64,000 bases of DNA from a virus. Position numbers and translations under genes: made by a program. The notes beneath the pieces were generated by a model that made no database searches, was not told where the DNA came from, and worked only from the letters and a program-made list of their open reading frames with translations. Below, piece by piece: positions 1-55,334 of this stretch. Numbering within the stretch: the first letter of the stretch is position 1; every line of letters begins with the position of its first letter. Location of the stretch: positions 1 through 64,000 of IMG/VR virus record IMGVR_UViG_3300029875_000005. One strand, 5' to 3'.

Positions 1-5
1 ATGCT

Positions 6-3000
6 TTGAAGGATGCCGAGAAGATGAAGGTGGACTATACCGCCGAGCCTAACGACATCATGGAGCAGGAGGCTTTGAAGACTAAGACCGTTGAGGCTGC
101 CAAGCAGCAGCTAGAGCACGCTCAGAATATCAAGAAGACCATGACTGCCAAGAAGGTTGCGGAGACTGTGGGTAAGACAGAACAGACTGAGGGCGCACAT
201 GAGGCTGGCAGCGTGGCTGCACAGAAGTTTGTGAATGCACCTAGACTTGTGGGCAACAAGCGCACACGAATGCTGCCTGACGGAGAGACCAAGATTAAGG
301 GACACTATGAGATTGTTCCGGCTGAAAGTCTTACTCCTTCTCATGATGTGAATAACGACTATAAGAAATCTGAGGGATTCCCTACCGATGCTGAGGGCAG
401 AACCGTGAATGATCGTGACTATGAGCACGACAAGGCAGCTCAGCAGAATACGGACCAGATAGCCCGAAAGTATAACGGTATGGCTATCGAGCAGGTGCCA
501 GTGGTGTCTGACGAGGGCATCGTTTATGATGGTAACGGTAGAACGATGGCAGGACAGAAGGCTGCAAAGGAAGGCACGGACGCAGAATACATCAACGATC
601 TCTTGGAGAATGCCGAGAACTTCGGCTTTACCAAAGAGCAGATTGAGCAGAGCGGAATCGAGCATCCACGTCTTGTATTGGTGACGGATGAGAGACTGCC
701 TTACGATGCAGCTACCTTCGCTAAGTTCAACCGAAACGAGAAGAAGACTCAGAGTAATACGGAGCAGGCGGTTGCCAAGGCTAAGACCTTGACTTCTGAC
801 GAGGTAGGCGCGATTGTTGCCGAGATTGAGGGAAATGGTTCTCTTGATGCTTTCTTTAACAATTCCAAGGCAATAAATGACTTGGTAAAGACGTTAGTAG
901 ATAAAGGCATCATCGGACAGAACGAGGTAGCACAGATGATGGATAGTTCTGAGCGACTTTCTGCACAAGGCAGGGAGTATGTGAAGAACCTTCTTTTGGG
1001 TTCAATCTTCAAGCCAGAGACTATCAGAATGCTGGGCATCGACTCTACGGTGAAGAATAAGGCTATCAACGCTATCCGCTCGGTAATGGACAACATGAAG
1101 TTGGGCGAGTTCTCTCTTCGTGATGAGATAGACCAAGCTATCCAGTTACTCTATGAGGCAAGACAGGGCGGCAATAAGGTTGATACGCTGCTGAGAACAC
1201 CAGACATGTTCGGTGAGGATGCGGCTAAGCGTTACTCATCTATCTCTCAGATGATGGCTTTGGCCTTGGAGGGCAAGGTTTCTGATTTCAGAGATTTGCT
1301 TGACGAATACAACCGCATCGCTAAGGCTAGAAATACTGGCGAGGGCAATATGTTTGAGGAAGCTCCTACCAAGGAAGAGTTAATTAATGAGTATTTGAAC
1401 TTTAAAAAATGGCAAGATTATGGAACAGGACATTCAGAAATTGAAGGAGGCAATGATGTTTCAGGCAATGAAGAACCTCAACAAGAAGCATCAGGAGGAA
1501 ATGAACCAGCAGAAGCAGGAACAGAACCAGAACGACCAAGAGTAGAAGAACCAGACGACTTAGTAAACAAAGAACTTGAAAGTCGTATTAAGGTTACTGA
1601 TGAGGAAACCGAGACTCCATCAAAGAATGGTCCTATCACAAGGCAGAAGATTCTGATTGATGGCGACAAGGAGGTTATCAAGGTTGACGAGCCTAACGAC
1701 AAGGGCGAGTACACTGGTTCTTACTATGAGTATGATGGCAAGAAGTTTGGTGACCTGAATGAGGTTACTGAGTATATTGACAGCAAGAAGGAAGAAGGCC
1801 CTCTCCCACTTCTTCCTAAAGAAGAGAAGCCAGACCCTACTTTTGACCCGATTGCGGCGGCCGCCCAGGAATTCAAGAAGGAGCATCCTCTGACCGAGGA
1901 GGAGATCATGAAGGCTGACGTGGATGATTTATCCAAGGATATGGCTCTTGATTATCTTAATGGTGAGGTGACGGATGATTTGCATCGTGCTATCTATGAA
2001 AGTATCTTTGCCAAGACAAGGGGGCAGAAGACTGAACCAAAGGTTGAGACTCCTAAAACGGAACCATCTGCTGACCCTATGGAAGGAATCAAGAATGCAG
2101 CAGAAGGATTCGAGAAGGAGAAGAAATCAAAAACCAAAAAGAAGCCTCAGCAGAAGGCTGACGATGCAGCAGTAGCAGCTTCCAACAAGAAGGTTAATGA
2201 CCTTTGGGATATGCTCAAGAATGCCGGCAAGGATGAAATGTCTGCTTCGTTCATCGGTCTTAACTCTAGACAGCTGGAAGTATTGCCTAAGCTGGTGAGC
2301 GCCATGGCCGAGAATGCTTATCTGAGAATCAAGAGAGGTATGCACAATCTTGAAGACGTGGTGAAGGAAATGCGCAAGGAGTTTGCTCCTGCTGCCAAGC
2401 TCTTTAAGAAGGAAGACGTAGATGCCATCTATGAGCAGATGATGAATATCCGCTATCGTGATGGTGAGCAGCGCATGAGCTTGAAGGAATGGGCTGACTA
2501 CTACGAGAAGACTTCGCCTAAGCATCAGGAGAATCTGGTGGGTGATTCCAAGACTGCCGAGGATCGTAAGCTGGCTGAGAAGAAGTTTATTGATACCGTG
2601 AACCTGCAGTTGGCTTTCAAGCATAAGTTTAGCGGTATTGTTGAGCTGAGAAAGATGGCAGAGAGACTCGGCTTGAAGGATATTAAGGACACAGACCTTC
2701 AGGAGCTTGCTGAAACTGCCATTGTTAAGCGAGCAAGAGGTATCGCTTCTTCTGAATCAACAAACGATGCTGTGAAGTTTGAACGCATCAAGGCACTCTA
2801 TGAGAATCAGCCGAGCCTCAACCAGCGTGATTCTGAGCGAGTGATGAAGCAGCAGTACTCTACCCCTGCCCCTTATGCTTTCCTTGCGGATATGTATGTG
2901 AAGGGCAACGGCAAGGTGATTGAGAGTGCTCTGGAGCCAAGTGCCGGCAACGGTATGCTTACCATCGGCTTGCCAATGGATAAGGTGCATGTGAACGATA

Positions 3001-6000
3001 TTGATGCACAGCGATTGGCGAACCTGAGAAGACAGGGTTTCAAGAATGTGACCAGTCAGGACGGAACCCAGCCTTTTGCAGACAAGGACGTTGACGTGGT
3101 GGTAACAAATCCACCATTCGGTAGTGCTACCCCTAAGGAGTATGACGGCTATAAGATTTCTTCTTTGGAAGGACAGATGGCTATCAATGCCTTGGAGAGC
3201 ATGAAGGACGATGGCCGTGCTGCCATTATCATCGGCGGCAAGACGGAATACGCCAAGAACGGAAGTCTGAATCCGAAGGATAAGGCTTTTCTTGGTTATC
3301 TCTATAGCCACTATAATGTGGAGGACGTGATTAATGTGGATGGCGGTCTGTATGCAAAGCAGGGAACCAGCTATCCTACACGTATTATATTAATAAACGG
3401 AAGACGCTTGAACGAGAATGCCTTTCCACCAGTGAAGGATAAGGCTAGAGCGGAAGCCGTGAAAGATTATGACGAACTTTATAAACGAATTGAAGATGAT
3501 ATACTACGAGGTGAACGGATGGATTCTTCCATCGGAGGAGAAACAAGAAGTACTCAACCAGAACTTGATCAACAAGGCGCTACTGGTACTCCTAAAGAGA
3601 GAGTACGAACAGGAGAACGAGGAGGAAGCAAACCAGATGGTAAGCGAGAGTCTGACCTATTTGACTCCACTTCCGTATCAGGAACCCATGATGACTTGGA
3701 AAATCAACGAGGAACCGAGCCAAGACAAGATGGAGGACTTTCTGATGGAGATACAGGAACAGACAGAACAGGGGCAGAGCCTTCTCCAAGCAAAGAACCA
3801 ACCACTGGAACCAATGAGCAGCGAGGAAATGGATCAGGAGGAGCTGGACGGAATGACGCTCAGCCAAGTACTGATGAACCTGCCAACGCCGGGAGCGGAA
3901 GCGGACCACGGGGACAATTACAGCGGGTGGACAAATCCGTACGTGGACTAAGTACAGAGAAAGTTATCTATACCCCTAAGAGTGGAAATCCATTCACTCT
4001 GAAAGCCGTGATGCCTGCCGATCAGCAGGAGGCGGTAAACAAGAATCTCGAAAAGCTGGGTGATGCCGACCAGTTCCTTGTTGATGAACTGGGCTATAAT
4101 GATAAGGATGATTTGTATTCTCATCTTGCTGCAGAGCAGGTTGACTCTGTAGCCCTTGCCTTGCAGCAGGCAAAGAAGGGCAACGCCTTTATCATTGGAG
4201 ATATGACTGGTATCGGTAAGGGAAGACAGGCTGCTTCGCTTATCAGATACGCCAAGAAGCAGGGTCAGGTTCCTGTATATTTCACCAAGACAGCAGGATT
4301 GCTGAGTGATGTTTACCGTGACTTGGTGGATATTGGAAGCCCAGACCTAAGACCATTTGTATTCGGTAGTGCCAAGGAAGCTGCCATTACCGACTCAGAC
4401 GGAAATGTAGTATTCGCCTTGCCGTCGAAGAGCGAGGTGAAGCGAGTGCTTGACTACATAGAAAAGAACGGAAAACTGCCAGACGAATACGACTATGTAT
4501 TGACTACCTACAGCCAAGTAAGCAACGGAGTATACGAGTTTGACGAGAATGGTGCCCGAAAAGAGAAGAAACTTGCGAAGGGTAAGACTTTCGGCGCTGC
4601 TGCCCTGAGCGGACAAAGAAGACGTGATGCTATTGAAAAACTGATGGGTAACGCATACCTTATACTTGATGAAAGCCACACGGCTGGTGGCAATAGCGGT
4701 CAGGGCAACTATTTCCAACACATTATTCAGAAGGCAAAGAATGTTACCTTCTTCTCGGCTACCTTTGCCAAGAGACCAGACAACATGCCTATCTACGCTT
4801 TGCGTACTGCCATGAACGAGGGCGGTATGAAATCATCCGACTTGATTGATGCGGTAAAGCGTGGTGGTGCAACCTTGCAGGAGATTATGAGCCAGACCTT
4901 GACGCAATGCGGTCAGATGATTAGACGTGAGCGAGATATGACTGGCGTAACCATCGACTGGAAGGCGATTGATGATCCTGAGCGAGTGCAGGAGCAGCGA
5001 GAACAGTATGACAGTATCATCGGATTGTTTAATGATATTATCAATTTCCAAAAGAAATATGTTTCAAGTTACGTGGATGAGCGTAATGATGAGCTGGCTG
5101 CCATTCAGTCTACTATGGGAATCAAGAAGGGAACGGCTGCCCTGGGCATCAAGAATCAGCCATTTGCCAGCAAGGCGTTCAATACCGTTCAGCAGGTACT
5201 TCTCTCTCTGAAAGCGAAGTCTGCTGCAGAACGTGCAATCGACTATTTGAAGCAGGGTATGAAGCCTGTGATTGCGTTGAACAATACCAACGAATCGCAG
5301 ACTGGCAACCTTGCGCTTGGAGAGGAAATGGACGCACCAGACTTGGGCACATCTTTAAAGAAGGGTCTGGAGGGTACACTTCGCTATACTCAGAAGGACG
5401 CAAAGGATAATAGCGAAAGCGGCTACATCAAGCTTTCTGATTTGGGCGATGAGGCAGTTGAGGCTTATCACGAACTGGAGAAGAAGATTGAGCAGACAAG
5501 TACCGGTCTTTCACTCTCTCCTATTGATGTTATCAAGAACGAACTGCAGAAGGCAGGTTATAAGGTTGGCGAGCTGACCGGTAGACAGACCGAGTTTGTT
5601 TATAACGACAACGGAACTGTTACCAAGGTGAAGCGTGCTGATACAGACAAGAAGAAACTCGCGCGCGACTTTAACGATGGTAAGATTGATGCGCTTATCC
5701 TCAACAAGAGTGCAGCAACCGGTATTTCCCTTCATGCTTCGAGCAAGTATAAGGACCAGAAGAAGCGTGTGATGATCGTGGCGCAGCAGCAGCTTGACGT
5801 AAACGATGAGGTACAGATGCGTGGACGTATCGACCGAACTGGTCAGGTGGCTAGAGGTGCATACGAGTATGTGGTTTCCCTTATCCCTGCCGAGCAGCGA
5901 CTGCTGATGATGTTTAAGGCTAAGTTGAAATCTCTTGATGCTAATACTACATCTTCACAGAAGAGTAAGTTCAACGAAATGGAAGTTGCCGATATTACCA

Positions 6001-9000
6001 ATAAATATGGTGATAAGGTAGTTCGTGAGTATATGGCAGAGCATCTTGACCTTTATGCTCGCATGGCTGATCCATTCGGATGGGAAAAGAGTAATGGCGA
6101 TGATTTGTCTAGAATCGACCCACAGACTCTTGTTGCTAGCGGTGGCGGTGTTGGTGATGGCGAAGCTGGTGCCGATGCAAGCAAGTTGCTTGGGCGTATG
6201 GCTCTGCTGAGAGTTTCTGAACAGGAGAAGATGTTGCAGGAGATTGGCGAGCTTTATGCCAACGAGATTCAGCGACTCAACGAAATGGGCGAAAATGACC
6301 TTGAGATTACCGAGCTGCCTTTGAAGGCTAAGACTCTCCACAAGGAAGTTTGGAAGCAGGGCGCAGAGCCGGGCGGCGATAACGCCTTTGCTGACAACAC
6401 CTATATAGAAAAGGTGAACATGGCCATCTTGAAGAAGCCAATGAAGGCTTCTGAGGTGAAGGCTTCGCAGGATGGTTTGACTGGCGGCAAGACTTGGGAT
6501 GAATACAAGACCGATAAGAAGGCTGCCGTGAAGGAGTACTTCGACCAGAAGATTGCGGACGAGACTCAGAAGTATGAGGAGCGTGCCGTGAAGGCTGCAA
6601 CCAAGGCTAAGGAGAAGTATATCAAGGATGGCAAGAAGGGTCAGAAGGATTCGGGCATGAGCGATGAGCAGATTGAGAAGATGGCTGGCTATCAGTATGA
6701 CAACATCTACAAGCAGGAGAAAGATAAGCTGAACGATGTGATGAAGAACCTGAAAGCCAAGGCTGAAATGTTTGAGCGTGTGCTTGATACCTTCGATACA
6801 AACCAAACTTTCGCTCTGCCTACGGATATGAATAACCCTAATGAGTTGAGCGGATTCGGTAACAGTTACGGTAGACTTATTGACATCAAGATTACTGATA
6901 ACTACTCGCCTAACGCCTCTTCTGTTTCCTTCGCTACCTTGGATGGCAGAAGAAAGATTACTTTCCCTATTGCCGGCAAGGTGGGGTCTGGTGAAAACAA
7001 GGTGGATATTATCGGTTCTATCGACCGCATGACCAAGCAGGCTGCCGGTATGGGAGACAGCCATCTCAGAGTATTGAACCAAAACTTTGATAACTGGGAT
7101 AGACTGACTAGCAATGAGAGCCGCAAGACTGGCTATATTGTAACTGGTAATCTGATGCAGGCTTTGGTTGACAGCAAGGATCAGGGCTTGGGCGGTCAGT
7201 TGGTGAAATATACAACTGATACTGGCGAGGTGAAGACAGGTATCTTGATGCCGGACCGATTCGACCCTAAGGGCTTGACTACGGATGCACCTATCAATAG
7301 CGTAACTGATAAGTTTGAGCTTTCATCATGGCATGGTGGTATTGACGAGGTTACTTCATCGGATGGTGAAGTGAAGGTGAAGCGCATAGACAACAATCGT
7401 GGTAACTTCTACGAGCTTCGTGTACCGAAGAGCAAGGCGAAGGGCGGCAAGTACTTCATGGATGAAGATTTGCTGAAACTGGTTAATGGCAATAACTTCG
7501 AGACTAGAGGCAACAATATGCTTGCTGAGTTTAAGCCAGAGCAGTTGAAACCAGTACTTGACCGCCTGTCTAAGATGGGTGTGAAGGTGCAGGAGGAGCG
7601 CAAGACTTCTGAGGATGAAGGCACCCACTTCCGTGAGGACCGAGGCTTGCAGTATTCTAAAACAGATACAAAAGATGTTAAGAATAGTAGAATCATTCCC
7701 GAAGATGTAGATAAAAATGTATCTTCGCAGATTGAAAAGAAGTTTGATGATAGAGTTGACGAGTTGACTAAGGACTTGTCGAATGAGGATAAAGCCGAGT
7801 TTAACAGACATCTTGACTATTATACCTCAGAATTTTCTAGATACAAGGCTTCTGAAATTACTTACACTTTAAATGGACTAGAAGATGAAGTTAGATTCTG
7901 GGGACGAACTTTTGGAAACCGAGAGAAAGCAGGTAGAACGCATCTTGTGCAACTTAAAAGAGCTGAACTTGAAGCTGCCAAAACTGCCGCAAGGAGAGAA
8001 TTGGACTATCGAGAAGTTCGAGCCAAAGCTCTCGCAGATGGCTATGGATTGCGAAGAGGAGCTAAAGCCTCTTTTGCAGATATATCTAGACTCTTTGAGG
8101 CGACAAATCAAGCAAAAGAAGAAGGCACAAGAAGACTCTTTGAGAAGGCGCGCGATATAGCCAAGCGACTCGGAGTTGAGTTTGGTGGCATGGACGAGGG
8201 TGACGAGAGAGGCAATGTTGGTGAAGCTACACCAGAAAGAAACATTAATCTCTTTATTGATACTCTTTCTAGAACATACACAAACCCTAAAGAGGCGGCT
8301 CATACCATTCTGCATGAGTTAATTCATCAGGCTACTATGGGTGCCATCCACCTTGTAAAGGACGGAAAGGCAGAAGGTATGCTTACTCCTAAGCAGATTG
8401 AAGCTGTAAAGACTGTTATTGATATTTACAATAAGGCTAAGGCTGATGGTAGAATTGTTTGGGAGGAAGGAAAGAGACGTAACTATGGTGGTAAGGATGA
8501 GTATGAATTTGCTGCTGAAATGGCAGGTGGAAAGCAGAGAAAGATACTTGACCTTTCTTTAGGTGAGCGAATCATGAACGCAGTTAACGAATTGCGCAAC
8601 CGAGGCGATAACTCCTTGTGGCAAGCTGTAAAGAACGCTTGGCATAAACTCTTTGAGATTTCGGATAAAAGCAAGATGGATAAGGCTCTCAATGACATCA
8701 TGGATGATTTCAATGAAAAGATTGATGATATTGCCATGAATGACATTGAGGAAAACGGCTATGCCTACAGAGTTACCGACAAGGATGAACTGGACCGCCT
8801 CAACAAGGAGAAGACTTTCAGAATGTATAGCGGAATGCAGGAGGTGGATGGTAAGCTCTACTCCCCTATGGCTGCTATCATTGACGGAAAGCGTACTGAT
8901 GCTACGGAGATAGGTGCTTGGATGGGCGCAGACGAGAGACCGGACCTTGTGAAGAACGGAAAGTTTACCCTTGTGAAGACTGACAAGAATAAGGGTGTTG

Positions 9001-12000
9001 GCGAGGGTGATGTACCTGCTGCCTACAATCCTTATATGCACACTTCCACTTCTATGATGAACGATCAGTTTACCGGTGCTTACGCTAGAGGTAACATCAA
9101 AGTTATAGAATGGGAGATTCCAGAAAGCGAGAAGACTAGCGGCTATCATGCCGAGGGCGCTAAGGATGCTGTTGGTCTTGTGCCTTGGCATTCGGGTTCG
9201 GTTAATAGTTTGCTGCCAAAGGACAGACAGAGACAGGTGATGCTTTCACGCTGGAGAAAGGCGGTGAGAGTGGTTCCTGATTCTGAGGTGGCTGAGAGTA
9301 TCGCAGAGCAGTTGAAGGGCACTGGCTTGGCTATCCCTTGGAATGTGGTTACTCCTAATCAGGTTAGGGAGTTGGCTAAGCTGGGCGTACCTATCACTAC
9401 CGTTGAGTCTGGAAGACAGGCTCCTGAAACCAAGGAGAAGTTCTTGCAGCAGATGGCTGATTTGGAACAGGAGTTCCCTCAGGCTAAGTTCGTTAACGTG
9501 AAAATGACAAAGGATGCCTACAAGGAATGGGGCAAGGACGGTGGCACCAAGTTCCGCACGGACCACGGCGATGGCAACTACCCTACTTCATCTGTTGAGA
9601 GCCATATCGAAAAGGTGGTTCAGAAGACTGGTGCAAAGGTGAAGATGGTTTCATCGGTTGATGAGATCACCAACAAGGCGGCGAAGACTGCTATTGAGGA
9701 TGGCAGAAAGATTACCGGTTGGTATGATGAGAAGACTGGCGAGGTGCATCTTTATATGCCTAATATCCACGATAGATATACTGCCGAGAAGACTATCTGG
9801 CATGAGGTGGTTGGACACAAGGGAATGAGAGAGTTGTTTGGTGATGAACGATTCGATAAGTTCCTTCGTGAAGTATGGTATGACTTAGATAAGCCTGAGA
9901 ATGCGGCTTTGAAGAAGCTGGTGGATGAGGAGAGGAAGTTCAATCCTCTGAATATCTACGATGCCATTGAGGAAGGTATCGCCCGACTCGCCGAGGATGG
10001 CAAGGGTGAACCGGGCTTCTGGAATGGTATCAAAAACAAGGTATCTGATTTCCTTCATGAAATCGGTTATCGTATTGCTCCTAATACTAAAGATGTGAAG
10101 TATCTGCTCTGGTTGAGCAAGAACTTGCAGAAGAATCAGAATGACCCTTATTGGAAGATGAGAGCCGAGGCGGTGAAATACCGTCTCGACCATGAGCGTA
10201 TGCCTGCTGTCGTGGCGCATGATGGCATGTTCTACGGAAATGACGGAAAGGTTAGAAGTATGGATAATCTTACCAAGGCTGAGTGGAATGAGGTTACAGA
10301 TGGTGAGATTCACTTCCGCACTACCCCATCTGCCGGCACGGCACTTGACAGATACCACCGTTCGCTTGACGAACATGGCTATATGTTCACAGAGAGCTAT
10401 ATGGACAATATGCTTTCGTTGAAGAAGTTGATGAATGCGATTGTGCCAGACAAGAAGATTGAGGATATTGCCTCTTCGGAGAATCCTTATATACTGCAGA
10501 ACACCATGCAGGGCGCGATGAGTGATGCGGCTCAGATGTTTGAGCGCAACGTGATGAAGCCTCTGGATAAGGCGATGGCTGGTATGCTGGATGCCTTCGA
10601 CGGAAAGAAGGACGATGAGAAGATAAGAAACTTCAATCTCTACATGATTACCAAGCACGGCTTGGAGCGAAACCGTATCTTGTATGTGCGTGATGCCTTG
10701 AAGTATATGCGCATGAACGAGAAGACCAAAAAGCTAGCTGATACTGTGGAGTTCGATTGGAACAACGAGAAAGCTACCCTTGACGAGAAATTGGAGCGTG
10801 GAGACATCGACTTGAAGACTTATTATGAGCGCATGGACGATTTCATCCGTACCTACGTGGATAGTGACAATAAGTTTGATGCTGGCGAACATGACTATTC
10901 GGGTATTCACGCTATACAGGAAGTGGCTAAGTCTTCTGATCCTTACGATGATGCAGAGGCTATTCAGAGCGTGATGGATTCAGAAGCAAAGATGGAGAGT
11001 ATCAAGAAGGGTTCTGTTAAGGACTATTGGGATAAAGTGAAGGCTGCCACCCAGTATTCTATTGATACTGACTATAAGAATGGTCTTATCAGCAGAGAAC
11101 TTTACGGTCATGTATCTGATATGTTCAACTGGTATGTGCCTTTGAGAAAGTATGATGAGGCTACTGCAGAAGATACTTATGGCTATATTACTGAGCAGGG
11201 AGACCCGAAGAGTTACATCGGAAGCACGATCATGAGAGCGAGAGGACACAAGTACCTGAGCGAAACAAACGTACTGGCGCAGATTGGCGCGATGGGTAAC
11301 AGAGCTATCAAGAATGGCGGTATGAACGCTATCCGTCAGGCATTTGCAAGATTCGTAAGAAACAACTCGAACAATAATCTTGTGACGGAGACTAGGGTTT
11401 GGTACGCCGATGACCCTATCACTCACACCACCGTGGAGCGTTACCCAGACATTCCCGAGGACGCTACGGCTGATGAAATCAATCAGATAGTAGCAGACTT
11501 CAATATGGAAATGAAGGATTTGGAATCAAAGGGTTTGGCGACAAAGGTGTATCGAAGAGGAAGAATCGGCTATAAGTTCCAAAGAGCAGAGAATAAATCG
11601 CAGCATATCGTAGATGTGAAGATTGCCGGCAGAACCCATACCTTTATTATCAACGGAAATCCTAGAGCGGCGCAGGCTCTGAATGGATTGCTGGAGAACT
11701 CGGGCGCCAAGGGAATCATGAAACCATTGAGTTCTATCTCAAGAATGATGGCGCAGTTGTGTACATCATATAACCCTGAGTTCGTGATGCGAAACATCAT
11801 GCGTGATGCGGAGTTTGCATCTAGTAACGTGACTTCTAAGGAAGGTGCAAGATATGGTTCGCTCTGGGCGAAGTACTATGCTCAGTTGGGGTTGTATAAG
11901 GGTGCATCGAATATCAGCTTCAAGGATTTGAGCGGAACTACTGGCTTGGGCTTGTTTGCCAAGTATCGTAACGGAACACTTGATACTTCTGACAAGGTAC

Positions 12001-13556
12001 AGAGATATTTCAAGGAGTTCATGGAGAACGGCGGCGAAACTGGTTGGGTTCAGATTAAAAACATGCAGGACTGGACCAAGGAGTACAAGAAGGATGTGAA
12101 GAGTGAAAGAAGCAAGATTGACAAGGGCGGTGCTGCCCTTCGTGACTTCTTCTTCGGAAATCTGGCGAACATCAACGAGGTGGCTGAGAATATCGCCAGA
12201 TTCGCTACCTACTGTGCGAGCCGAGACAGTAACCGCTCTATCATCCGTTCGGTCTATGATGCGAAGGAGGTATCTACCAACTTCAACCGCCATGGTAGCG
12301 GTGATGCCATCAAGAGTTTCAAGAACGGAGAAATGACTGGCGGCAAGGCGGCTGCAAGATGGGCTTACGGATTTACGGCTAGCTATCTCAGACATTGTTC
12401 TATGTTCTTCAATGCCGGTATTCAGAGTACAAATCTTCTTGTGAAGAACTTGAAAAATCATCCTGTGGGTACTTCTATCAATATGCTTGCTATTCCTTTT
12501 GCCCTCGGTGCGCTAGCTGCACTTGGTAACAACGTGCTGATTGCTAGCGAGGACGAGAAGGACAGAAAGGGAGTGAAGGACCCATACGGCGAGTTGCCTG
12601 ACTACGTGAGAAGAAACAATCTCTGCATCTACAAGGGTAGCGGTCAGTTTGTTACTATTCCGCTTGCCATCGAGTTGAGAGCCTTCTATGGTTTGGGTGA
12701 CTTGGCGGCTGGATTGACCTTCTCGCCAAACGTAAGCGGGCAGAAGAATCCTGCCTTGGATGCCGTGGGCTGTATGTCGCAGCTTGTGCCGGTGATGGAC
12801 TATCTCGGCAACTCTTCGGCTGGCAAGGAGCCATTGAACGAGACGATCAAGGCTATCTCTCCTTCAGCCCTATCTCCTTTCGTGGAATGGGAGCTAAATA
12901 CCGACTGGAAGGGTGCGCCGATTGAAAGACGTGGTGACTGGAATGAAAATTCCCCTGCTTGGCAGAGAGCCTACAAGGGTGTGCCTGACGGATATATGGC
13001 TGTGAATAAATGGGTGAATGCACAGACCAACGATGTAGCCAAGGGTAATGAGGATATGCTGGGTAACAGTTTCCTGGATATGGTGACGAACCCTAGTATG
13101 CTAAATCATTACATCGGTGGTATAGGTGGTGGCGCTGCTACCTTTACCGAGCGAGCTATCGGTGTTATCAAGCACGGAAGCGACACGGAAACCAAGGATA
13201 TTCCTTTCCTTCGCTCTCTTCTTTATACTCCTAGTGAGCAGAACAGCTTGCAGAGAACCAAGAGTAAGTGGTATAACTACAAAGACGAAATGGAGAAGAC
13301 CATGGCCAACGTGGACCGCCTGAAATCGAAGAACGTTCCGATTGACAAGAGAATCACAAATATCGGTGAGTATTTCCACTTCCAAAACTCCAAGGAGGCT
13401 GCCAAGGTTAGAATCATCGAGCTGGCAGAGAAGCAGATGAAGCGATGGAAGAAACTCAGAGATAAATCTTCAGATACCGAGAGCATCAACTTCGCTAATC
13501 AGAATATTGACAGAATCATGATGGATGCGGTTGATGAACTGGATAGATTGGAATAA
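6..13556 (+). CDS. giant multidomain polyvalent protein, >=4516 aa, 5' end open at window edge
   Basis: One uninterrupted ORF. The frame is already open at nt 3, so the true start may lie upstream. Domain motifs are listed as separate features. Two low-complexity linkers at about 1420-1560 and 3520-3945. Confidence 0.9.
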   Translation: MKDAEKMKVDYTAEPNDIMEQEALKTKTVEAAKQQLEHAQNIKKTMTAKKVAETVGKTEQTEGAHEAGSVAAQKFVNAPRLVGNKRTRMLPDGETKIKGHYEIVPAESLTPSHDVNNDYKKSEGFPTDAEGRTVNDRDYEHDKAAQQNTDQIARKYNGMAIEQVPVVSDEGIVYDGNGRTMAGQKAAKEGTDAEYINDLLENAENFGFTKEQIEQSGIEHPRLVLVTDERLPYDAATFAKFNRNEKKTQSNTEQAVAKAKTLTSDEVGAIVAEIEGNGSLDAFFNNSKAINDLVKTLVDKGIIGQNEVAQMMDSSERLSAQGREYVKNLLLGSIFKPETIRMLGIDSTVKNKAINAIRSVMDNMKLGEFSLRDEIDQAIQLLYEARQGGNKVDTLLRTPDMFGEDAAKRYSSISQMMALALEGKVSDFRDLLDEYNRIAKARNTGEGNMFEEAPTKEELINEYLNFKKWQDYGTGHSEIEGGNDVSGNEEPQQEASGGNEPAEAGTEPERPRVEEPDDLVNKELESRIKVTDEETETPSKNGPITRQKILIDGDKEVIKVDEPNDKGEYTGSYYEYDGKKFGDLNEVTEYIDSKKEEGPLPLLPKEEKPDPTFDPIAAAAQEFKKEHPLTEEEIMKADVDDLSKDMALDYLNGEVTDDLHRAIYESIFAKTRGQKTEPKVETPKTEPSADPMEGIKNAAEGFEKEKKSKTKKKPQQKADDAAVAASNKKVNDLWDMLKNAGKDEMSASFIGLNSRQLEVLPKLVSAMAENAYLRIKRGMHNLEDVVKEMRKEFAPAAKLFKKEDVDAIYEQMMNIRYRDGEQRMSLKEWADYYEKTSPKHQENLVGDSKTAEDRKLAEKKFIDTVNLQLAFKHKFSGIVELRKMAERLGLKDIKDTDLQELAETAIVKRARGIASSESTNDAVKFERIKALYENQPSLNQRDSERVMKQQYSTPAPYAFLADMYVKGNGKVIESALEPSAGNGMLTIGLPMDKVHVNDIDAQRLANLRRQGFKNVTSQDGTQPFADKDVDVVVTNPPFGSATPKEYDGYKISSLEGQMAINALESMKDDGRAAIIIGGKTEYAKNGSLNPKDKAFLGYLYSHYNVEDVINVDGGLYAKQGTSYPTRIILINGRRLNENAFPPVKDKARAEAVKDYDELYKRIEDDILRGERMDSSIGGETRSTQPELDQQGATGTPKERVRTGERGGSKPDGKRESDLFDSTSVSGTHDDLENQRGTEPRQDGGLSDGDTGTDRTGAEPSPSKEPTTGTNEQRGNGSGGAGRNDAQPSTDEPANAGSGSGPRGQLQRVDKSVRGLSTEKVIYTPKSGNPFTLKAVMPADQQEAVNKNLEKLGDADQFLVDELGYNDKDDLYSHLAAEQVDSVALALQQAKKGNAFIIGDMTGIGKGRQAASLIRYAKKQGQVPVYFTKTAGLLSDVYRDLVDIGSPDLRPFVFGSAKEAAITDSDGNVVFALPSKSEVKRVLDYIEKNGKLPDEYDYVLTTYSQVSNGVYEFDENGARKEKKLAKGKTFGAAALSGQRRRDAIEKLMGNAYLILDESHTAGGNSGQGNYFQHIIQKAKNVTFFSATFAKRPDNMPIYALRTAMNEGGMKSSDLIDAVKRGGATLQEIMSQTLTQCGQMIRRERDMTGVTIDWKAIDDPERVQEQREQYDSIIGLFNDIINFQKKYVSSYVDERNDELAAIQSTMGIKKGTAALGIKNQPFASKAFNTVQQVLLSLKAKSAAERAIDYLKQGMKPVIALNNTNESQTGNLALGEEMDAPDLGTSLKKGLEGTLRYTQKDAKDNSESGYIKLSDLGDEAVEAYHELEKKIEQTSTGLSLSPIDVIKNELQKAGYKVGELTGRQTEFVYNDNGTVTKVKRADTDKKKLARDFNDGKIDALILNKSAATGISLHASSKYKDQKKRVMIVAQQQLDVNDEVQMRGRIDRTGQVARGAYEYVVSLIPAEQRLLMMFKAKLKSLDANTTSSQKSKFNEMEVADITNKYGDKVVREYMAEHLDLYARMADPFGWEKSNGDDLSRIDPQTLVASGGGVGDGEAGADASKLLGRMALLRVSEQEKMLQEIGELYANEIQRLNEMGENDLEITELPLKAKTLHKEVWKQGAEPGGDNAFADNTYIEKVNMAILKKPMKASEVKASQDGLTGGKTWDEYKTDKKAAVKEYFDQKIADETQKYEERAVKAATKAKEKYIKDGKKGQKDSGMSDEQIEKMAGYQYDNIYKQEKDKLNDVMKNLKAKAEMFERVLDTFDTNQTFALPTDMNNPNELSGFGNSYGRLIDIKITDNYSPNASSVSFATLDGRRKITFPIAGKVGSGENKVDIIGSIDRMTKQAAGMGDSHLRVLNQNFDNWDRLTSNESRKTGYIVTGNLMQALVDSKDQGLGGQLVKYTTDTGEVKTGILMPDRFDPKGLTTDAPINSVTDKFELSSWHGGIDEVTSSDGEVKVKRIDNNRGNFYELRVPKSKAKGGKYFMDEDLLKLVNGNNFETRGNNMLAEFKPEQLKPVLDRLSKMGVKVQEERKTSEDEGTHFREDRGLQYSKTDTKDVKNSRIIPEDVDKNVSSQIEKKFDDRVDELTKDLSNEDKAEFNRHLDYYTSEFSRYKASEITYTLNGLEDEVRFWGRTFGNREKAGRTHLVQLKRAELEAAKTAARRELDYREVRAKALADGYGLRRGAKASFADISRLFEATNQAKEEGTRRLFEKARDIAKRLGVEFGGMDEGDERGNVGEATPERNINLFIDTLSRTYTNPKEAAHTILHELIHQATMGAIHLVKDGKAEGMLTPKQIEAVKTVIDIYNKAKADGRIVWEEGKRRNYGGKDEYEFAAEMAGGKQRKILDLSLGERIMNAVNELRNRGDNSLWQAVKNAWHKLFEISDKSKMDKALNDIMDDFNEKIDDIAMNDIEENGYAYRVTDKDELDRLNKEKTFRMYSGMQEVDGKLYSPMAAIIDGKRTDATEIGAWMGADERPDLVKNGKFTLVKTDKNKGVGEGDVPAAYNPYMHTSTSMMNDQFTGAYARGNIKVIEWEIPESEKTSGYHAEGAKDAVGLVPWHSGSVNSLLPKDRQRQVMLSRWRKAVRVVPDSEVAESIAEQLKGTGLAIPWNVVTPNQVRELAKLGVPITTVESGRQAPETKEKFLQQMADLEQEFPQAKFVNVKMTKDAYKEWGKDGGTKFRTDHGDGNYPTSSVESHIEKVVQKTGAKVKMVSSVDEITNKAAKTAIEDGRKITGWYDEKTGEVHLYMPNIHDRYTAEKTIWHEVVGHKGMRELFGDERFDKFLREVWYDLDKPENAALKKLVDEERKFNPLNIYDAIEEGIARLAEDGKGEPGFWNGIKNKVSDFLHEIGYRIAPNTKDVKYLLWLSKNLQKNQNDPYWKMRAEAVKYRLDHERMPAVVAHDGMFYGNDGKVRSMDNLTKAEWNEVTDGEIHFRTTPSAGTALDRYHRSLDEHGYMFTESYMDNMLSLKKLMNAIVPDKKIEDIASSENPYILQNTMQGAMSDAAQMFERNVMKPLDKAMAGMLDAFDGKKDDEKIRNFNLYMITKHGLERNRILYVRDALKYMRMNEKTKKLADTVEFDWNNEKATLDEKLERGDIDLKTYYERMDDFIRTYVDSDNKFDAGEHDYSGIHAIQEVAKSSDPYDDAEAIQSVMDSEAKMESIKKGSVKDYWDKVKAATQYSIDTDYKNGLISRELYGHVSDMFNWYVPLRKYDEATAEDTYGYITEQGDPKSYIGSTIMRARGHKYLSETNVLAQIGAMGNRAIKNGGMNAIRQAFARFVRNNSNNNLVTETRVWYADDPITHTTVERYPDIPEDATADEINQIVADFNMEMKDLESKGLATKVYRRGRIGYKFQRAENKSQHIVDVKIAGRTHTFIINGNPRAAQALNGLLENSGAKGIMKPLSSISRMMAQLCTSYNPEFVMRNIMRDAEFASSNVTSKEGARYGSLWAKYYAQLGLYKGASNISFKDLSGTTGLGLFAKYRNGTLDTSDKVQRYFKEFMENGGETGWVQIKNMQDWTKEYKKDVKSERSKIDKGGAALRDFFFGNLANINEVAENIARFATYCASRDSNRSIIRSVYDAKEVSTNFNRHGSGDAIKSFKNGEMTGGKAAARWAYGFTASYLRHCSMFFNAGIQSTNLLVKNLKNHPVGTSINMLAIPFALGALAALGNNVLIASEDEKDRKGVKDPYGELPDYVRRNNLCIYKGSGQFVTIPLAIELRAFYGLGDLAAGLTFSPNVSGQKNPALDAVGCMSQLVPVMDYLGNSSAGKEPLNETIKAISPSALSPFVEWELNTDWKGAPIERRGDWNENSPAWQRAYKGVPDGYMAVNKWVNAQTNDVAKGNEDMLGNSFLDMVTNPSMLNHYIGGIGGGAATFTERAIGVIKHGSDTETKDIPFLRSLLYTPSEQNSLQRTKSKWYNYKDEMEKTMANVDRLKSKNVPIDKRITNIGEYFHFQNSKEAAKVRIIELAEKQMKRWKKLRDKSSDTESINFANQNIDRIMMDAVDELDRLE
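294..575 (+). other. ParB/sulfiredoxin-like nuclease domain within the polyvalent ORF
   Basis: HYEIVPAESLTPSHDVN ... VVSDEGIVYDGNGRTMAGQKA. The DGNGR segment (nt 528-542) matches the ParB-fold (D/E)GxxR motif. Confidence 0.6.
2851..3410 (+). other. N6-adenine DNA methyltransferase domain within the polyvalent ORF
   Basis: SAM-binding motif I LEPSAGNGML (about nt 2932-2958) and catalytic motif IV NPPFG (nt 3108-3122). Confidence 0.85.
4190..5850 (+). other. strawberry-notch-like SF2 helicase core within the polyvalent ORF
   Basis: Motif I GDMTGIGKGRQ (GIGKGR at nt 4209-4226), motif II DESH (4668-4679), motif III FFSATF, motif VI QMRGRIDRTGQ (5814-5846). The GxGKGR P-loop is typical of Sno/SBNO-type helicases. 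Confidence 0.8.
8313..8327 (+). other. zincin metallopeptidase motif HELIH (first)
   Basis: AHTILHELIHQATMGAIH, an HExxH signature in a hydrophobic helix context. Confidence 0.55.
9801..9818 (+). other. zincin metallopeptidase motif HEVVGH (second)
   Basis: EKTIWHEVVGHKGMRELFG, an HExxGH signature as in SprT/Wss1-like or polyvalent-protein-associated metallopeptidases. Confidence 0.55.
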
Positions 13557-22199: not shown

Positions 22200-22859
22200 T
22201 TATTTAGAGGTTTGATTTACGCCTAGCTGTTGCAGGGCGATGGTGTACATCTGGCTAGCTTTGGTATCATCGTAGGCTGAGAGGAGCAGAAAGGCGATAT
22301 AATAGATGAAGGCATTCTTCAGCTTGTCCGGAATGGCTACATCGGTTGTGGAAACGTCTGTGCTCACAGACTTAGGTACGCCCACATAGGTAATGACCGC
22401 CGTTGAAGTCTTGGGCTGCATGAGTATCTTGATTGGATTCTCTCGCATGATGGCAGCCTGTGGGCGATCAATGGTACCCTTGGCGGTATCGTCGTACATC
22501 ATAAGAGCTTCATCATCGGTGTCCTCTACTGGGGCGACTGCCTTATACCAAGAAGCGCCACGAATGCGGTTGATGGTAATAATCTCCATATTGGAAGGCA
22601 TGGTGATAACACCGATGTTACGATTAGAATCAAAATCGGACACCTGAATTGTGTCGGAAGTCGAGCCTATGCTCTTGGAATCGGACAGAACAGGCGAAGA
22701 TGCAGCAGTAATAGCTATCCAATGCAGCGCATCGTTTATCTTCGACTTGATGATGTTGTCCATATACAAATCATCCTTCTCATCGGTGATTTCCGATGTG
22801 TTGTTGGATTCCTCGTCTATGCACCAACGTACTGCCTTTATGATTTCCTCTATACTCAT
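22200..22859 (-). CDS. hypothetical head/neck-module protein
   Basis: 219-aa ORF lying between the capsid-like and fibre genes. Confidence 0.6.
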   Translation of the reverse strand: MSIEEIIKAVRWCIDEESNNTSEITDEKDDLYMDNIIKSKINDALHWIAITAASSPVLSDSKSIGSTSDTIQVSDFDSNRNIGVITMPSNMEIITINRIRGASWYKAVAPVEDTDDEALMMYDDTAKGTIDRPQAAIMRENPIKILMQPKTSTAVITYVGVPKSVSTDVSTTDVAIPDKLKNAFIYYIAFLLLSAYDDTKASQMYTIALQQLGVNQTSK

Positions 22860-26060: not shown

Positions 26061-28094
26061 ATGTATAAGAAAATGGTAAAGGCAAGAATACTGACACTTA
26101 GCAAAGTGATGCCTCAACATAACAAGTATGACTCGGTTAAGGCTCGCAAGCGAAGACAAGAACACGGCAAGGACGAGGAGTTACTCAGCCGATGCAGAAA
26201 TGCTTGGAATAACCTGAGCGGTGTGCGAGAAACGAGGGCGAGAACGATGCGCTACTGTATGGGCGACCAATGGAGCGACACCATCAGAGTATACCATCAT
26301 GGTTACTGGGAGGAAATGACGGAACGCACCTATATGGAAAAGCGCAACCAGACACCTATGAGCAACAACATCATGGTGAGCATTCTGGAATCTATTGCCG
26401 GTCTTTATGCCAAGCAGGGAACGGAACCGGTATGCTTTGCAAGAGATAGCGACTCCCGACAATTGAGCGACATGATGAGTGCCACGATGCAATGCAACTG
26501 GCAGACAACGTACATGCAAGATGTGCTGAACCACGCCATTAAGGACTATCTTATGGGCGGTCAGATGTTTGTCAGAGAGAGTTGGGAGGCGAAGGAACTA
26601 GAAATGCCAGACTCATGGACAGACGCGATGGAACCCGACCACATGTTTTTTGAATGCGGCAGCGACCCACGACACAACGACGTGAGCCTTATCGGTGTGC
26701 TGCATGACGTGAGCCGAGAAGACTTGTATCAGAAGTTTGCCAAACAGGAATATGGGCTTACAGAAGAAGATCTGAACGCCATCTTTGATATTTATCCTTC
26801 GGACGATAACAGCTACGGCTATGAGTTTAACGAAGAAAAGGCGTTGGATAATCTCTCTTTCGACCATACCAACAAGGGAAGACATTACTCTAGAGTGATT
26901 GAGGTGTGGACCACGGAAACCAAACCAATGCTGCAATGCTTTGACCCTATTGCTCAAAATGTAAATGATGCTTATTTTAGGGTAGATCGTAATGATACGG
27001 CTATGATACAAAAGCTGATAGATTTAAACAATAGGCGTAAAGAGCAGTATGACGAGGCTGGTGTGCCGGAGGAAGATAGGGCGTATATCACCAGCAAAGA
27101 TACTTCCAGTAAGTACTGGTATTATACCTATATGGCGCCAGACGGAACTATCCTCTGTCAGGGCGAAACACCATACGACTACAAAAGCCATCCTTTCACA
27201 ATGAAACTCTATCCGTATATCAACGGAGAGATTCATCCATTCCTTGCCAACATCATAGACCAGCAGAGATACATCAACCGACTGATTGTGATGAACGACA
27301 TGGCCATCAGAAGCAGTTTCAAGGGATTCAAGATGATTCCTACAAATGTGCTTAACGGCAGAACGCCAGAGCAGTTTATGGAAGAGGCGGTAGAGTATGA
27401 CGGATGGATATTCTACAAGCCATCGGTAAAGACGCCGAATGCGAAGCCAGAAATTATTACATCGAATGCCGTGAACATCGGTACGAATGAACTCTTGCAG
27501 ATAGAACTGAACCTGATTAGAGAGGTTACCAACGTGAGCGGTGCTTTGCAGGGTAAGACCCCATCGGCAGGAACTTCGGCAGCCAGATATGCACAGGAAA
27601 GCCAGAATGCAACCACGTCTCTGTATACCATCCTTGCCGACATGGACGTGTTCACGGAGAAGCTGGCAACCAAGAAGTGCATGACTATACAGCAGTACTA
27701 CGAAGACGGAAGAAGGGTTTACGACCGGAACTTCAATACGGTTTACAAGTACGACCGTCTTTCGGCAAGAGATATTCACTTCAAGATCAGCATCAAGAAT
27801 GCAGCAGCTACGGCAGCCTTCAACACGATGCAAAACGATACGCTCGACAAGCTTCTTGAAATGGGCGGTATCAATATCATTCAGTATCTGCAGAATCTCA
27901 ACGCACCATTTGCAGACAAGTTGCTTGCCAGCGTACAGGAGCAGCAGGCTCAGCTTGAACAGATGTATCAGCAGCAACAGGCAATGGCTATGCAGCAAGG
28001 CGGTGGTCAGGTAGAGAACGGAATTGTGCAGGGTGCAGACCAGAATGCAGTAGCACAAGCACAGAGTGCATTAGGATATAACAGAGCAGCATAA
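26061..28094 (+). CDS. putative portal protein
   Basis: 677 aa, first gene of the + strand morphogenesis operon, with a Q-rich C-terminal tail. The call rests on size and synteny. Alternative starts at 26073 and 26109. Confidence 0.55.
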   Translation: MYKKMVKARILTLSKVMPQHNKYDSVKARKRRQEHGKDEELLSRCRNAWNNLSGVRETRARTMRYCMGDQWSDTIRVYHHGYWEEMTERTYMEKRNQTPMSNNIMVSILESIAGLYAKQGTEPVCFARDSDSRQLSDMMSATMQCNWQTTYMQDVLNHAIKDYLMGGQMFVRESWEAKELEMPDSWTDAMEPDHMFFECGSDPRHNDVSLIGVLHDVSREDLYQKFAKQEYGLTEEDLNAIFDIYPSDDNSYGYEFNEEKALDNLSFDHTNKGRHYSRVIEVWTTETKPMLQCFDPIAQNVNDAYFRVDRNDTAMIQKLIDLNNRRKEQYDEAGVPEEDRAYITSKDTSSKYWYYTYMAPDGTILCQGETPYDYKSHPFTMKLYPYINGEIHPFLANIIDQQRYINRLIVMNDMAIRSSFKGFKMIPTNVLNGRTPEQFMEEAVEYDGWIFYKPSVKTPNAKPEIITSNAVNIGTNELLQIELNLIREVTNVSGALQGKTPSAGTSAARYAQESQNATTSLYTILADMDVFTEKLATKKCMTIQQYYEDGRRVYDRNFNTVYKYDRLSARDIHFKISIKNAAATAAFNTMQNDTLDKLLEMGGINIIQYLQNLNAPFADKLLASVQEQQAQLEQMYQQQQAMAMQQGGGQVENGIVQGADQNAVAQAQSALGYNRAA

Positions 28095-45923: not shown

Positions 45924-45944
45924 AAGCTATATGATTTTGATGAT

Positions 45945-46376: not shown

Positions 46377-46386
46377 ATTATTATAA

Positions 46387-47111: not shown

Positions 47112-47113
47112 AC

Positions 47114-54200: not shown

Positions 54201-55334
54201 TTACATCTTTCCTTCGAGGGCATCGAAAGCAGATTGTACGTCCTTATTTAATGTACGTGCGTATCTAGTAGTTTGACGCAAGGTAGTGTGTCCAAGCACC
54301 CTTGCCACAATGTTGATAGGCATTCCCTTAGACAGGAATAAGGTTGCCGCAGTCGCTCTACCCATGTGGGTATGCAGCCTGTCAACGCCAACCATCTGCC
54401 CGATCGCCTTCAGATAATCATTATACTTCTGATTCGTCATTCTAGGCAGCTTGAAGTCATACTTCTGTAGTATCTCCAGGGCAGGTTTGAGAAGTTGGAA
54501 TACGAAATCCGTATCTGTTTTCGTTCTCTTAGCGTGATAGAACATCTTGCCGCCAATCTCCTCGCAGTTAGTATAATCGAACGATGCAAGGTCAGAGTAT
54601 GCAAGTCCGGTATAGCATTGGAAGAGGAACAAATCTCTTGCATGGAGAATATGAGGTGTTGAGAGTTTCAGTTTCTTGATGGCAGCAAACTGCTCTTCGG
54701 TGACACAATCAACATACTGCTTTTCTCCCTTACCAATATGGAATGGCAGAAACTTATAAGGATTCTGCTCAATAAGTCCGTCTATCATCGCATCATTGAT
54801 GAACAACTTGAGATACTTGTGATAGTCATAGATTGTGCATTGAGCCTTATCCTGTCTGTGGAGATACTCATCCATTGAACGCACCTTCGATACGTTGCAG
54901 TCTTGGAATGACTTTATCTTCCCCCACGTCTTCAGAAATTTGATAAAGACATCATAGCGTTTCTTGGTATGCTCGCACACCTTACGCTCATTTCGTCTTC
55001 TCTCGCAGTACTCGATGAAAGAAGTTCCTTCGTCTTCTCCGTTCATCTGTGAGATAACCACATTTAAGTCACAACAGCCTTCCTTAACCATCTTACTGAT
55101 GATTTCGTTTGCTCTCGCGCGGTATGCCTGTATGATTTCATTCAGTTCATCCGCATCTTTTCTCTTGATAACCATCTTTGACGCATCAGACCATTGTGTA
55201 GTTGTCACTTTCACGCCTGTGGAAAAGTACTTCCTTTGACGCTTGGCACAAAAGCATAATTCTACCGAAACTTCATGTTTTGAGGTCGCTCGCTTCAAAC
55301 GATTGTGAATAATACTTAAATTAATTTTTGCCAT
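54201..55334 (-). CDS. int: tyrosine integrase (Bacteroidota IntDOT-like type)
   Basis: Start set at MAKINLSIIH (ATG at 55334). Box II HMGRAT (HxxR), then LGHTTLRQTTRYA (His and the Tyr nucleophile). Confidence 0.85.
   Translation of the reverse strand: MAKINLSIIHNRLKRATSKHEVSVELCFCAKRQRKYFSTGVKVTTTQWSDASKMVIKRKDADELNEIIQAYRARANEIISKMVKEGCCDLNVVISQMNGEDEGTSFIEYCERRRNERKVCEHTKKRYDVFIKFLKTWGKIKSFQDCNVSKVRSMDEYLHRQDKAQCTIYDYHKYLKLFINDAMIDGLIEQNPYKFLPFHIGKGEKQYVDCVTEEQFAAIKKLKLSTPHILHARDLFLFQCYTGLAYSDLASFDYTNCEEIGGKMFYHAKRTKTDTDFVFQLLKPALEILQKYDFKLPRMTNQKYNDYLKAIGQMVGVDRLHTHMGRATAATLFLSKGMPINIVARVLGHTTLRQTTRYARTLNKDVQSAFDALEGKM

Follow-up and report, generated by a model that had tools for sequence, protein, structure and literature searches.

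Polyvalent proteins, a class described by Iyer, Burroughs, Anand, de Souza and Aravind in 2017 (J Bacteriol; PMC5512222), join many unrelated enzymatic domains in one giant chain, and two of their domains, the DdrB-type ParB domain and LPD38, have been reported only from phage-type members, which are predicted to be packaged and delivered with the DNA (PMC5512222). In the case of phage P1, the head-packaged proteins DarB and DdrB guard the incoming DNA against type I restriction (PMC9024508). Here, we describe a giant gene which opens a stretch of 64,000 nucleotides (nt) representing positions 1 to 64,000 of the IMG/VR virus record IMGVR_UViG_3300029875_000005 (this whole stretch being referred to as the window). 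This gene specifies a phage-type polyvalent protein of ~5,770 amino acids (aa), belonging to a temperate podovirus probably of the Segatella copri group, and it is considered likely that the protein is packed in the capsid, ejected and active in countering host defences. The class and its hallmark domains have been described before, comparable giants from cultured Bacteroides phages are publicly available, and the window protein represents a very large member. The novelty of the present analysis lies in the true gene length, the population-level proof of an intact open reading frame (ORF) and an in-frame cassette polymorphism, along with the apparent plasmid-type origin of its methyltransferase (MTase) and Strawberry-notch (Sno) region, a predicted LPD38-containing fold of ~1,100 aa without a solved relative, and a widespread unmodelled domain, here termed module X.

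The combination of ParB, MTase, Sno ATPase and LPD38 domains in one ORF matches the phage type of Iyer et al., thus bearing out the original prediction that the gene encodes a polyvalent protein. The likeness includes the number of unrelated enzymatic domains in the chain, the presence of both phage-type-only domains (DdrB-ParB and LPD38) above their Pfam thresholds, the pairing of a predicted adenine MTase with a SWI2/SNF2-class ATPase (of which a Strawberry-notch version was noted by those authors in a few instances), the HExxH and HExxxH zincin-like motifs, and the fact that the encoding phage packages its DNA by means of a portal and terminase. In contrast, the window protein exceeds most described examples in length, only ~190 aa of its ~1,100-aa body, which has a single predicted fold, are covered by the Pfam LPD38 model, module X is unmatched by any Pfam LPD model, and a cassette slot is documented at the level of the population.

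Residues are numbered below in window coordinates of the giant frame. As originally noted, this frame (frame 3, plus strand) is open at the 5′ edge of the window and runs without a stop from nt 3 to the stop codon at 13554-13556, a distance of 4,517 codons; the ORF listed at 6..13556 (4,516 aa) begins at the first TTG within it. The chance occurrence of 4,517 stop-free codons at the base composition of the window has a probability of ~1e-121, and the longest ORF in any other frame across the region is 375 aa. The window therefore holds the C-terminal 4,517 codons and the stop of the giant gene (3..13556, + strand), whose true start is located ~3.8 kb upstream. This extension, which had been called for in the original prediction, was obtained from an IMG/VR scan in which the first 500 residues, used as a query, retrieved 80 loci with 93-99% amino acid identity: in 79 of these near-identical loci, the frame continues upstream for 1,209-1,278 codons (~1,250 codons past the window edge), reaching an ATG that immediately follows a stop codon. 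When a further scan was anchored at aa3301-3800, 57 contigs could each be stitched, within the same contig, across identical overlaps of at least 10.9 kb, and a single complete ORF of 5,082-5,998 aa (median, 5,770) was present in each of these independent viral contigs, none being split by a frameshift or stop codon. Alleles collinear with the window encode ~5,770 aa (~644 kDa) and occupy ~23% of a genome of ~75 kb.

Selection along the gene was assessed by the Nei-Gojobori method for 26 collinear relatives plus the window, and the ratio of nonsynonymous to synonymous substitution rates (dN/dS) was 0.20 overall. The lowest value was obtained for the ParB domain (0.04), followed by the MTase (0.08), the Sno ATPase (0.08-0.10), the HExxxH block (0.11) and the C-terminal body (0.10-0.17), while neutral evolution was apparent in one linker only, the Gly/Asp/Ser-rich segment aa1151-1330 (1.02). 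Because the ORF is intact in 57 of 57 contigs and displays this dN/dS pattern, the giant gene is real, is translated along its whole length and is no assembly artefact. One of the stitched contigs, IMGVR_UViG_3300045988_079216 (loci L058/L101), carries a 5,082-aa allele in which the C-terminal body is shortened by ~190 aa at its end (window aa4328-4517) and which may be a defective or divergent variant.

All motifs quoted in the original prediction were located, namely, DGNGR (aa176), EPSAGNG (aa978), NPPF(G) (aa1036), GIGKGR (aa1403), DESH (aa1556), QMRGRIDRTGQ (aa1938), HELIH (aa2771) and HEVVGH (aa3267), and the catalytic motifs are kept in 56-57 of the 57 relatives. The DdrB-type ParB domain (aa96-220; 288..662, + strand) is recognized by PF18763 (E value of 1.8e-10, 41.4 bits against a cutoff of 27.6), and its DGNGR motif is retained in 57/57 relatives. 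It is followed by an acidic, Lys-/Pro-rich linker (aa ~520-760; 1560..2282, + strand; dN/dS of 0.16), which constitutes a first variable slot, relatives bearing insertions of ~125-155 aa or deletions of ~65-80 aa at this position. The subsequent block (aa ~850-2540; 2550..7622, + strand; dN/dS of 0.08-0.11) is predicted to encode an N6-adenine MTase and a Strawberry-notch superfamily 2 ATPase of the type found on plasmids and conjugative elements. The ATPase is matched above the Pfam threshold by AAA_34 (aa1375-1670; E value of 4.9e-14) and Helicase_C_4 (aa1853-2103; E value of 1.1e-24), with Walker A, Walker B and motif VI intact. In the case of the MTase, the Pfam match (MTS) is weak, its 20.1 bits (E value of 5e-4) falling below the gathering cutoff of 23; motifs I (EPSAGNG) and IV (NPPFG) are, nevertheless, conserved, and homologues are annotated as N-6 DNA methylases. 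Of the enzymatic assignments made originally, ParB and Sno are thus upheld by above-threshold domain matches and the MTase by its motifs and the annotation of its homologues. The MTase and helicase are separated by the neutrally evolving, low-complexity linker mentioned above (aa1151-1330; 3453..3992, + strand), which is rich in Gly, Asp, Ser, Thr and Arg and whose GC content at third codon positions (GC3) is 0.27, compared to ~0.5-0.6 elsewhere in the giant gene.

The MTase-Sno block is 39-40% identical over its full length to gp3 of phage BS-TP4, yet its relatives are predominantly found outside the deposited phages. A tblastn search with aa900-2550 against 50,697 phage records (E value of ≤1e-5) retrieved just 3 matching records, from BS-TP4 and an Acinetobacter phage only, whereas 567 plasmid records, 226 of them conjugative, match the block, with a best identity of 35.5% over aa887-2533; the plasmid matches are mostly annotated as strawberry notch C-terminal domain-containing proteins. 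These matches suggest a plasmid-type origin for the block. P1 DarB and the Bcep22-like phages were not matched by the MTase-helicase block in tblastn at this threshold (E value of ≤1e-5), no more sensitive profile comparison having been run. The label "DarB-like" consequently fails at the sequence level, as the MTase-helicase has no tblastn match to the DarB proteins of P1 or of Bcep22-like phages.

Downstream of the variable slot discussed below, the HExxxH block (aa ~3198-3400; 9594..10202, + strand; dN/dS of 0.11) is present in 57/57 relatives. Its motif at aa3267 follows the pattern H-E-x-x-x-H rather than the HExxH pattern, an active-site variant of polyvalent-protein metallopeptidases that was described by Iyer et al. 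(PMC5512222), and in distant homologues down to ~28% identity it is conserved as T-h-h-H-E-x-h-G/A-H-x-G-h-R-x-L-h-G. The block yielded no Pfam, PDB profile or fold match. The remainder of the protein, which had originally been regarded as motif-poor with hydrophobic stretches, proved to be an LPD38-containing helical body common to many phage giants (aa3400-4517; 10200..13553, + strand; phrog_14770, E value of 1e-258; dN/dS of 0.10-0.17), in which LPD38 itself (PF18857) spans aa4193-4402 (nt 12579-13208, + strand; E value of 8e-24, 85.2 bits against a cutoff of 27). It contains one strong transmembrane-like segment only (aa4155-4180; nt 12465-12542), the sole such segment of the protein. A search with aa3400-4517 identified 102 homologues, nearly all with PF18857, and in all but one of these PF18857 is the last among the precomputed domains, located behind varying N-terminal polyvalent domains.

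AlphaFold2 modeling of the C-terminal body from a 73-sequence alignment produced a model with a mean predicted local distance difference test score (pLDDT) of 78.3 and a predicted template modeling score (pTM) of 0.75. Foldseek comparison of this model to the PDB revealed no relative (best E value of 0.44, template modeling [TM] score of ≤0.13), whereas 73 matches with an E value of ≤1e-3 and TM scores of up to 0.69 were obtained in BFVD, all of them derived from the C-terminal portions of phage giants, among which are those of Ralstonia phage Alix, Escherichia coli phage PTXU04 (E value of 1.2e-18, TM score of 0.50) and Cellulophaga phage phi19:3, as well as giants with LT_GEWL or RelA/SpoT domains. 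LPD38 forms part of a confidently predicted fold of ~1,100 aa that has no solved relative. Analysis by tblastn also linked the C-terminal body to L0134 of phage 933W (E value of 1e-22, aa ~3876-4333), a 2,806-aa protein encoded by the last gene of the late operon, to giants of Vibrio and Ralstonia phages and, partially, to those of Burkholderia phages, such as BcepIL02 gp70 (E value of 2e-9). With ~3,100 of the 4,517 residues assigned to homology groups, the original estimate that more than half of the length was unrecognizable was overstated, although the expectation of an undescribed domain was justified in one case, that of module X.

The closest deposited relatives of the window protein are gp3 of BS-TP4 (5,391 aa; PQ571277) and gp55 of BKO1-TP3 (5,553 aa; PQ571269; annotated as DarB-like antirestriction), which derive from cultured temperate phages of gut Bacteroidales (Bacteroides). 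Both are collinear with the window protein, with identities of ~24-26% in the ParB region, 28% in the C-terminal body and, in BS-TP4 only, 39% in the MTase-Sno region. They differ in that they are devoid of the ~700-aa cassette region, in that their N-terminal ~1,250 aa are essentially unrelated, save for a weak likeness of the first ~100 aa to BKO1-TP3, and in that their genes directly adjoin the portal gene on its upstream side, the window gene being 12.5 kb away from it. These giant genes are not discussed in the paper describing the two phages (Gut Microbes 2025; PMC12694917). Each phage also harbors a second very large gene of >2,600 aa, BKO1-TP3 gp44 (L001 28867-35336) and BS-TP4 gp14 (L002 26961-33548), the latter having been reported as the target of a diversity-generating retroelement (PMC12694917).

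It is through the C-terminal body that the window protein can be connected to proteins with experimental data. This body is shared with the LPD38 giants L0134 of 933W and gp47 of phi24B (~2,810 aa) and PTXU04_00025 (2,198 aa), while the match to the giants of Bcep22-like phages (JC1 gp69 and BcepIL02 gp70; ~4,500-4,670 aa) is partial. All are found in temperate or short-tailed phages, with the giant gene located inside the late region or at its end, and their identity to the window protein is only 22-26%. Their N-terminal cargo differs, consisting of LPD5, LPD1 and MuF-C in phi24B gp47 and of a lytic transglycosylase plus a DarB-type helicase-methylase in the Bcep22-like proteins. In short-tailed relatives, the C-terminal unit belongs to virion-internal ejection proteins: JC1 gp69 (4,515 aa) was represented by 51 unique peptides from CsCl-purified virions (PMC9144972), and phi24B gp47 (2,811 aa), which virion proteomics detected in abundance, is invisible in the cryo-electron microscopy map and has been proposed to be an ejection protein with a role in a trans-periplasmic conduit (bioRxiv 10.64898/2026.04.10.717836), while PTXU04_00025 is required for efficient infection (bioRxiv 10.1101/2023.09.18.558157). 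The original suggestion of a virion-packaged, injected protein is well supported by these three homologues of the C-terminal body.

Comparison to the Dar system of P1 reveals a similar logic, as the roles of DdrB (ParB plus metallopeptidase) and DarB (MTase-helicase, 250 kDa) are here joined in one chain. P1, however, is a myovirus, the MTase-helicase has no detectable similarity to DarB, and DarB, whose N-terminal 30 residues target it to the capsid, depends on DarA, Hdf, DdrB and Ulx (PMC9024508); none of these four was identified here. A precedent for the packing and ejection of a single giant polypeptide by a short-tailed phage is provided by the virion RNA polymerase of coliphage N4 (~3,500 aa), in which a zincin-like domain is needed for encapsidation according to Iyer et al. 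(PMC5512222). The window protein is ~1.65 times longer and is devoid of an RNA polymerase module; identification as an N4-like virion RNA polymerase was rejected since no RNA polymerase family was matched in Pfam, PHROGs or NCBIfam.

Based on these comparisons, we infer that the protein of this phage is packaged, ejected, antirestrictive and possibly processed by proteolysis. It would be produced late and packed inside the capsid, with the C-terminal unit of ~1,300 aa (the HExxxH block plus the LPD38 helical body) serving as a constant packaging and ejection chassis. At infection, it would be expelled via the portal and tail, either together with the DNA or before it, whereupon its N-terminal cargo is presumed to act at once on the incoming DNA: the DdrB-type ParB domain would bind or process DNA, and the N6-adenine MTase, together with the Strawberry-notch translocase, would shield the DNA from restriction. 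The chain may be divided into functional parts by its one or two zincin-like modules, and the slot at aa ~2540-3197 is believed to hold exchangeable effector cassettes, including module X. Several observations weigh against this proposal. The packaging evidence derives from homologues which share only the C-terminal body, at 22-28% identity, and the match to the Bcep22 group extends over only ~195 aa (E value of 2e-9); no relationship could be detected between the MTase-helicase block and either P1 DarB or the Bcep22-type DarB-like proteins, and the block is of a type common on plasmids, where protein transfer is not established. In addition, a 644-kDa chain would have to cross the portal channel unfolded or after cleavage, peptidase activity of the zincin-like motifs is unsupported beyond the motifs themselves, and the giant gene is situated 12.5 kb from the portal gene, across a leftward tail operon.

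That the single ORF might be an artefact, i.e., an assembly chimera or a set of genes fused by sequencing error or recoding, is suggested by its extreme size and the uncultured source of the window; this can hardly be correct and is effectively refuted by the 57 independent contigs in which the ORF is intact (identical overlaps of at least 10.9 kb), by the collinear genes of 5.4 to 5.6 thousand codons in the cultured phages BS-TP4 and BKO1-TP3, by the overall dN/dS of 0.20 with the frame kept in all module exchanges, and by the negligible chance probability of such a frame (~1e-121). Among functional explanations, it seems unlikely that the product stays in the cytoplasm, without being packaged, and serves there in anti-defence or DNA handling. 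In such a case, the ParB-MTase-Sno portion would work inside the producing cell or the lysogen, as its plasmid homologues may do, methylating or remodelling the phage DNA ahead of packaging, and the protein would never enter the virion. Such a role would be compatible with the plasmid-type character of the MTase-Sno block (567 plasmid against 3 phage records), with its lack of detectable similarity to the head-packaged P1 DarB and with the restriction of direct virion evidence to homologues. It is, however, difficult to reconcile with the in-frame fusion of MTase-Sno to the LPD38 body in 57/57 relatives, with the virion association or proposed ejection function of the homologues of that body, with the restriction of reported DdrB-ParB and LPD38 domains to phage-type, predicted-packaged polyvalent proteins, and with the position of the giant gene within the structural and late region.

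The same C-terminal body could be taken to indicate a protein which mainly builds a structural ejectosome conduit, as do gp7, gp16 and gp20 of P22 or gp14 to gp16 of T7, the enzymatic N-terminal parts being dispensable passengers that contribute little to counter-defence. PTXU04_00025, which bears LPD38 and no other confident annotation, is required for efficient infection, a conduit role was proposed for gp47 by the phi24B authors, the body is the sole universally conserved part of the protein and holds its sole transmembrane-like helix, and no other ejection-protein candidates were recognized in the window. Passenger status is, however, not expected for the enzymatic domains, since it is on these that purifying selection is strongest within the gene (dN/dS of 0.04-0.10) and their catalytic motifs are kept in 56-57 of 57 relatives. 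We regard a predominantly structural function as quite improbable, and it overlaps with, rather than excludes, the packaged and ejected counter-defence protein that is favored here.

Domain shuffling among database homologues divides aa2513-3369 into three independently mobile modules, Y, X and Z, of which Y and X make up the variable effector-cassette slot (aa ~2540-3197; 7620..9593, + strand), a region replaced in frame among relatives. When relatives that are otherwise 93-99% identical were compared, the alleles encountered at this slot comprised a window-like version, a 140-aa version, a 308-aa version with a MORN-like repeat, a 372-aa version with an HEMLH motif, a 69-aa remnant and a version from which module X was deleted, and the reading frame was preserved in every exchange. 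Such differences between near-identical phages fit the expectation for an arms-race interface. Module Y (aa2541-2890) bears the HELIH motif (aa2771; nt 8313-8327, + strand), and its dS of 0.89, dN/dS of 0.41 and deviant GC3 (0.35, compared to ~0.55 in neighboring modules) are consistent with recent exchange. The motif is present as originally described, whereas its zincin profile matches are below threshold (M90, E value of 0.026), as is the SprT-like match of the alternative HEMLH allele (E value of 0.024).

Module X, whose core of ~220 aa (aa ~2920-3140; 8760..9422, + strand) is conserved and without a Pfam model, is widespread. An exhaustive HMMER search with aa2880-3200 identified 807 representative clusters at an E value of ≤1e-3, 744 at ≤1e-10 and 499 at ≤1e-30, with a core identity among matches of 45-59%. 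The carriers are mostly giants, 116 of the 149 listed being at least 2,000 aa long (median, 3,312 aa; maximum, 7,283 aa), in which the domain occupies varying relative positions and co-occurs with PBECR5, LPD23 and LPD3. Approximately 50 positions are at least 95% conserved, among them Y-N-P-Y-x-H (aa3008-3013), N-D-Q-F (aa3020-3023) and several Arg, Glu and Lys residues; since many of these near-invariant positions are polar or charged, the residue pattern appears enzyme-like. Module X had no Pfam match in the window protein or in six carriers, and no NCBIfam or PDB profile match; it may be identical to one of the LPDs that Iyer et al. defined and for which no Pfam model was ever built. Searches of the PDB by phmmer and profile with aa2540-3450 and with module X returned nothing significant, as did Foldseek comparison to the PDB of an AlphaFold2 model of aa2540-3450, which was unusable (pLDDT of 54.8). 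A likeness of aa2540-3450 to lethal factor (rank 13, E value of 1.3) does not constitute evidence and was discarded. A more speculative notion, which we put forward tentatively and consider doubtful, is that aa ~2540-3197 represents a hot-swappable effector bay that matches local host defences and that module X represents a new family of delivered enzymes.

The 1,258 N-terminal aa that are encoded outside the window (locus L004:6227-10000) yielded no Pfam match and no tblastn match in phages. This region opens with a tandem pair of ~35-aa motifs (LYNALKADGAVSG... and LYDALHADGAVSS...) and holds a Gly/Ala-rich hydrophobic tract of ~230 aa. Because the weak similarity to the N terminus of BKO1-TP3 gp55 (E value of 2.7e-4) is limited to the first ~100 aa of the full protein, the N-terminal region upstream of the window might act in capsid targeting. 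No partner gene proved to be conserved upstream of the giant gene, the only similarity to BKO1-TP3 gp57 and BS-TP4 gp1 being that of a more distant upstream ORF of 287 aa, which is shared with both.

The remaining gene content of the window is indicative of a temperate, lambdoid-style podovirus. A P22-like portal protein is encoded at 26061..28094 (+ strand; PF16510, E value of 2.6e-22; phrog_156, E value of 5.7e-51) and an SU10-type adaptor at 22200..22859 (- strand; PF24175, E value of 3.2e-7), and a terminase-like gene is also present. This podovirus architecture explains why, as originally observed, no tape measure, tube or sheath genes are apparent, and identification of the giant product as a tape measure protein was rejected given this context and the absence of any such family match in Pfam or PHROGs. 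The temperate lifestyle is deduced from an integrase gene (54201..55367, - strand; phrog_1, E value of 2e-27), which forms part of a lambdoid-like early/recombination module (44840-55367) together with genes for NinG/Rap (51851-52423, -), an SbcC-like protein (48950-50944, -), RecT (47114-48016, -) and a metal-dependent hydrolase (46387-46974, -); an HNH endonuclease is encoded at 58369-59061 (+). Three large proteins of the structural region, of 1,129 aa (18538-21927, -), 921 aa (32596-35361, +) and 569 aa (23405-25114, -), matched no functional family or PHROGs of unknown function only. Neither the major capsid protein nor a tail fibre was identified by family matches in the window, and the 1,129-aa neighbor of the giant gene, which had no family match, is thus a putative tail fibre only.

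The GC content of the giant gene is 0.46-0.51 in most modules, compared to 0.417 in the rest of the phage (13557-64000), module Y (GC content of 0.42, GC3 of 0.35) being the exception within the gene. Megablast of the giant gene against deposited phages and plasmids returned no match, an NCBIfam search of the giant protein returned no family, no terminator-like site was found 3′ of the gene, and Rfam and tRNA scans of the window were negative. Relatives of the giant gene (80-97% identity) were detected on contigs binned to metagenome-assembled genomes (MAGs) of Segatella copri, Candidatus S. violae and Candidatus S. albertsiae (L164-L166). The host is, therefore, likely to belong to the Segatella (Prevotella) copri group; as the association of these three S. 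copri-complex MAGs rests on binning, it serves as a host hint only.

It is believed that a phage or plasmid entering a new cell delivers polyvalent proteins before any other molecule, but almost none have been studied experimentally. The giant protein described here unites in a single chain activities that are distributed among several Dar proteins in P1, and it belongs to a lineage that is abundant in human gut viromes (>140 related IMG/VR contigs) and appears to infect S. copri, a medically relevant gut bacterium that is hard to manipulate. Its C-terminal body recurs as a shared chassis in many phage giants, among them those of Shiga toxin phages, and any structure or function established for it would therefore apply to all of them. 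The cassette variants that occur in nature represent a ready-made comparative experiment. If the doubtful notion of an effector bay were true, related phages in one host population would swap in-frame cassettes at aa ~2540-3197 to fit local defences, and module X, with at least 800 clusters at ~50% identity that are almost always found in giants, would be an enzyme delivered at entry by phages and mobile elements.

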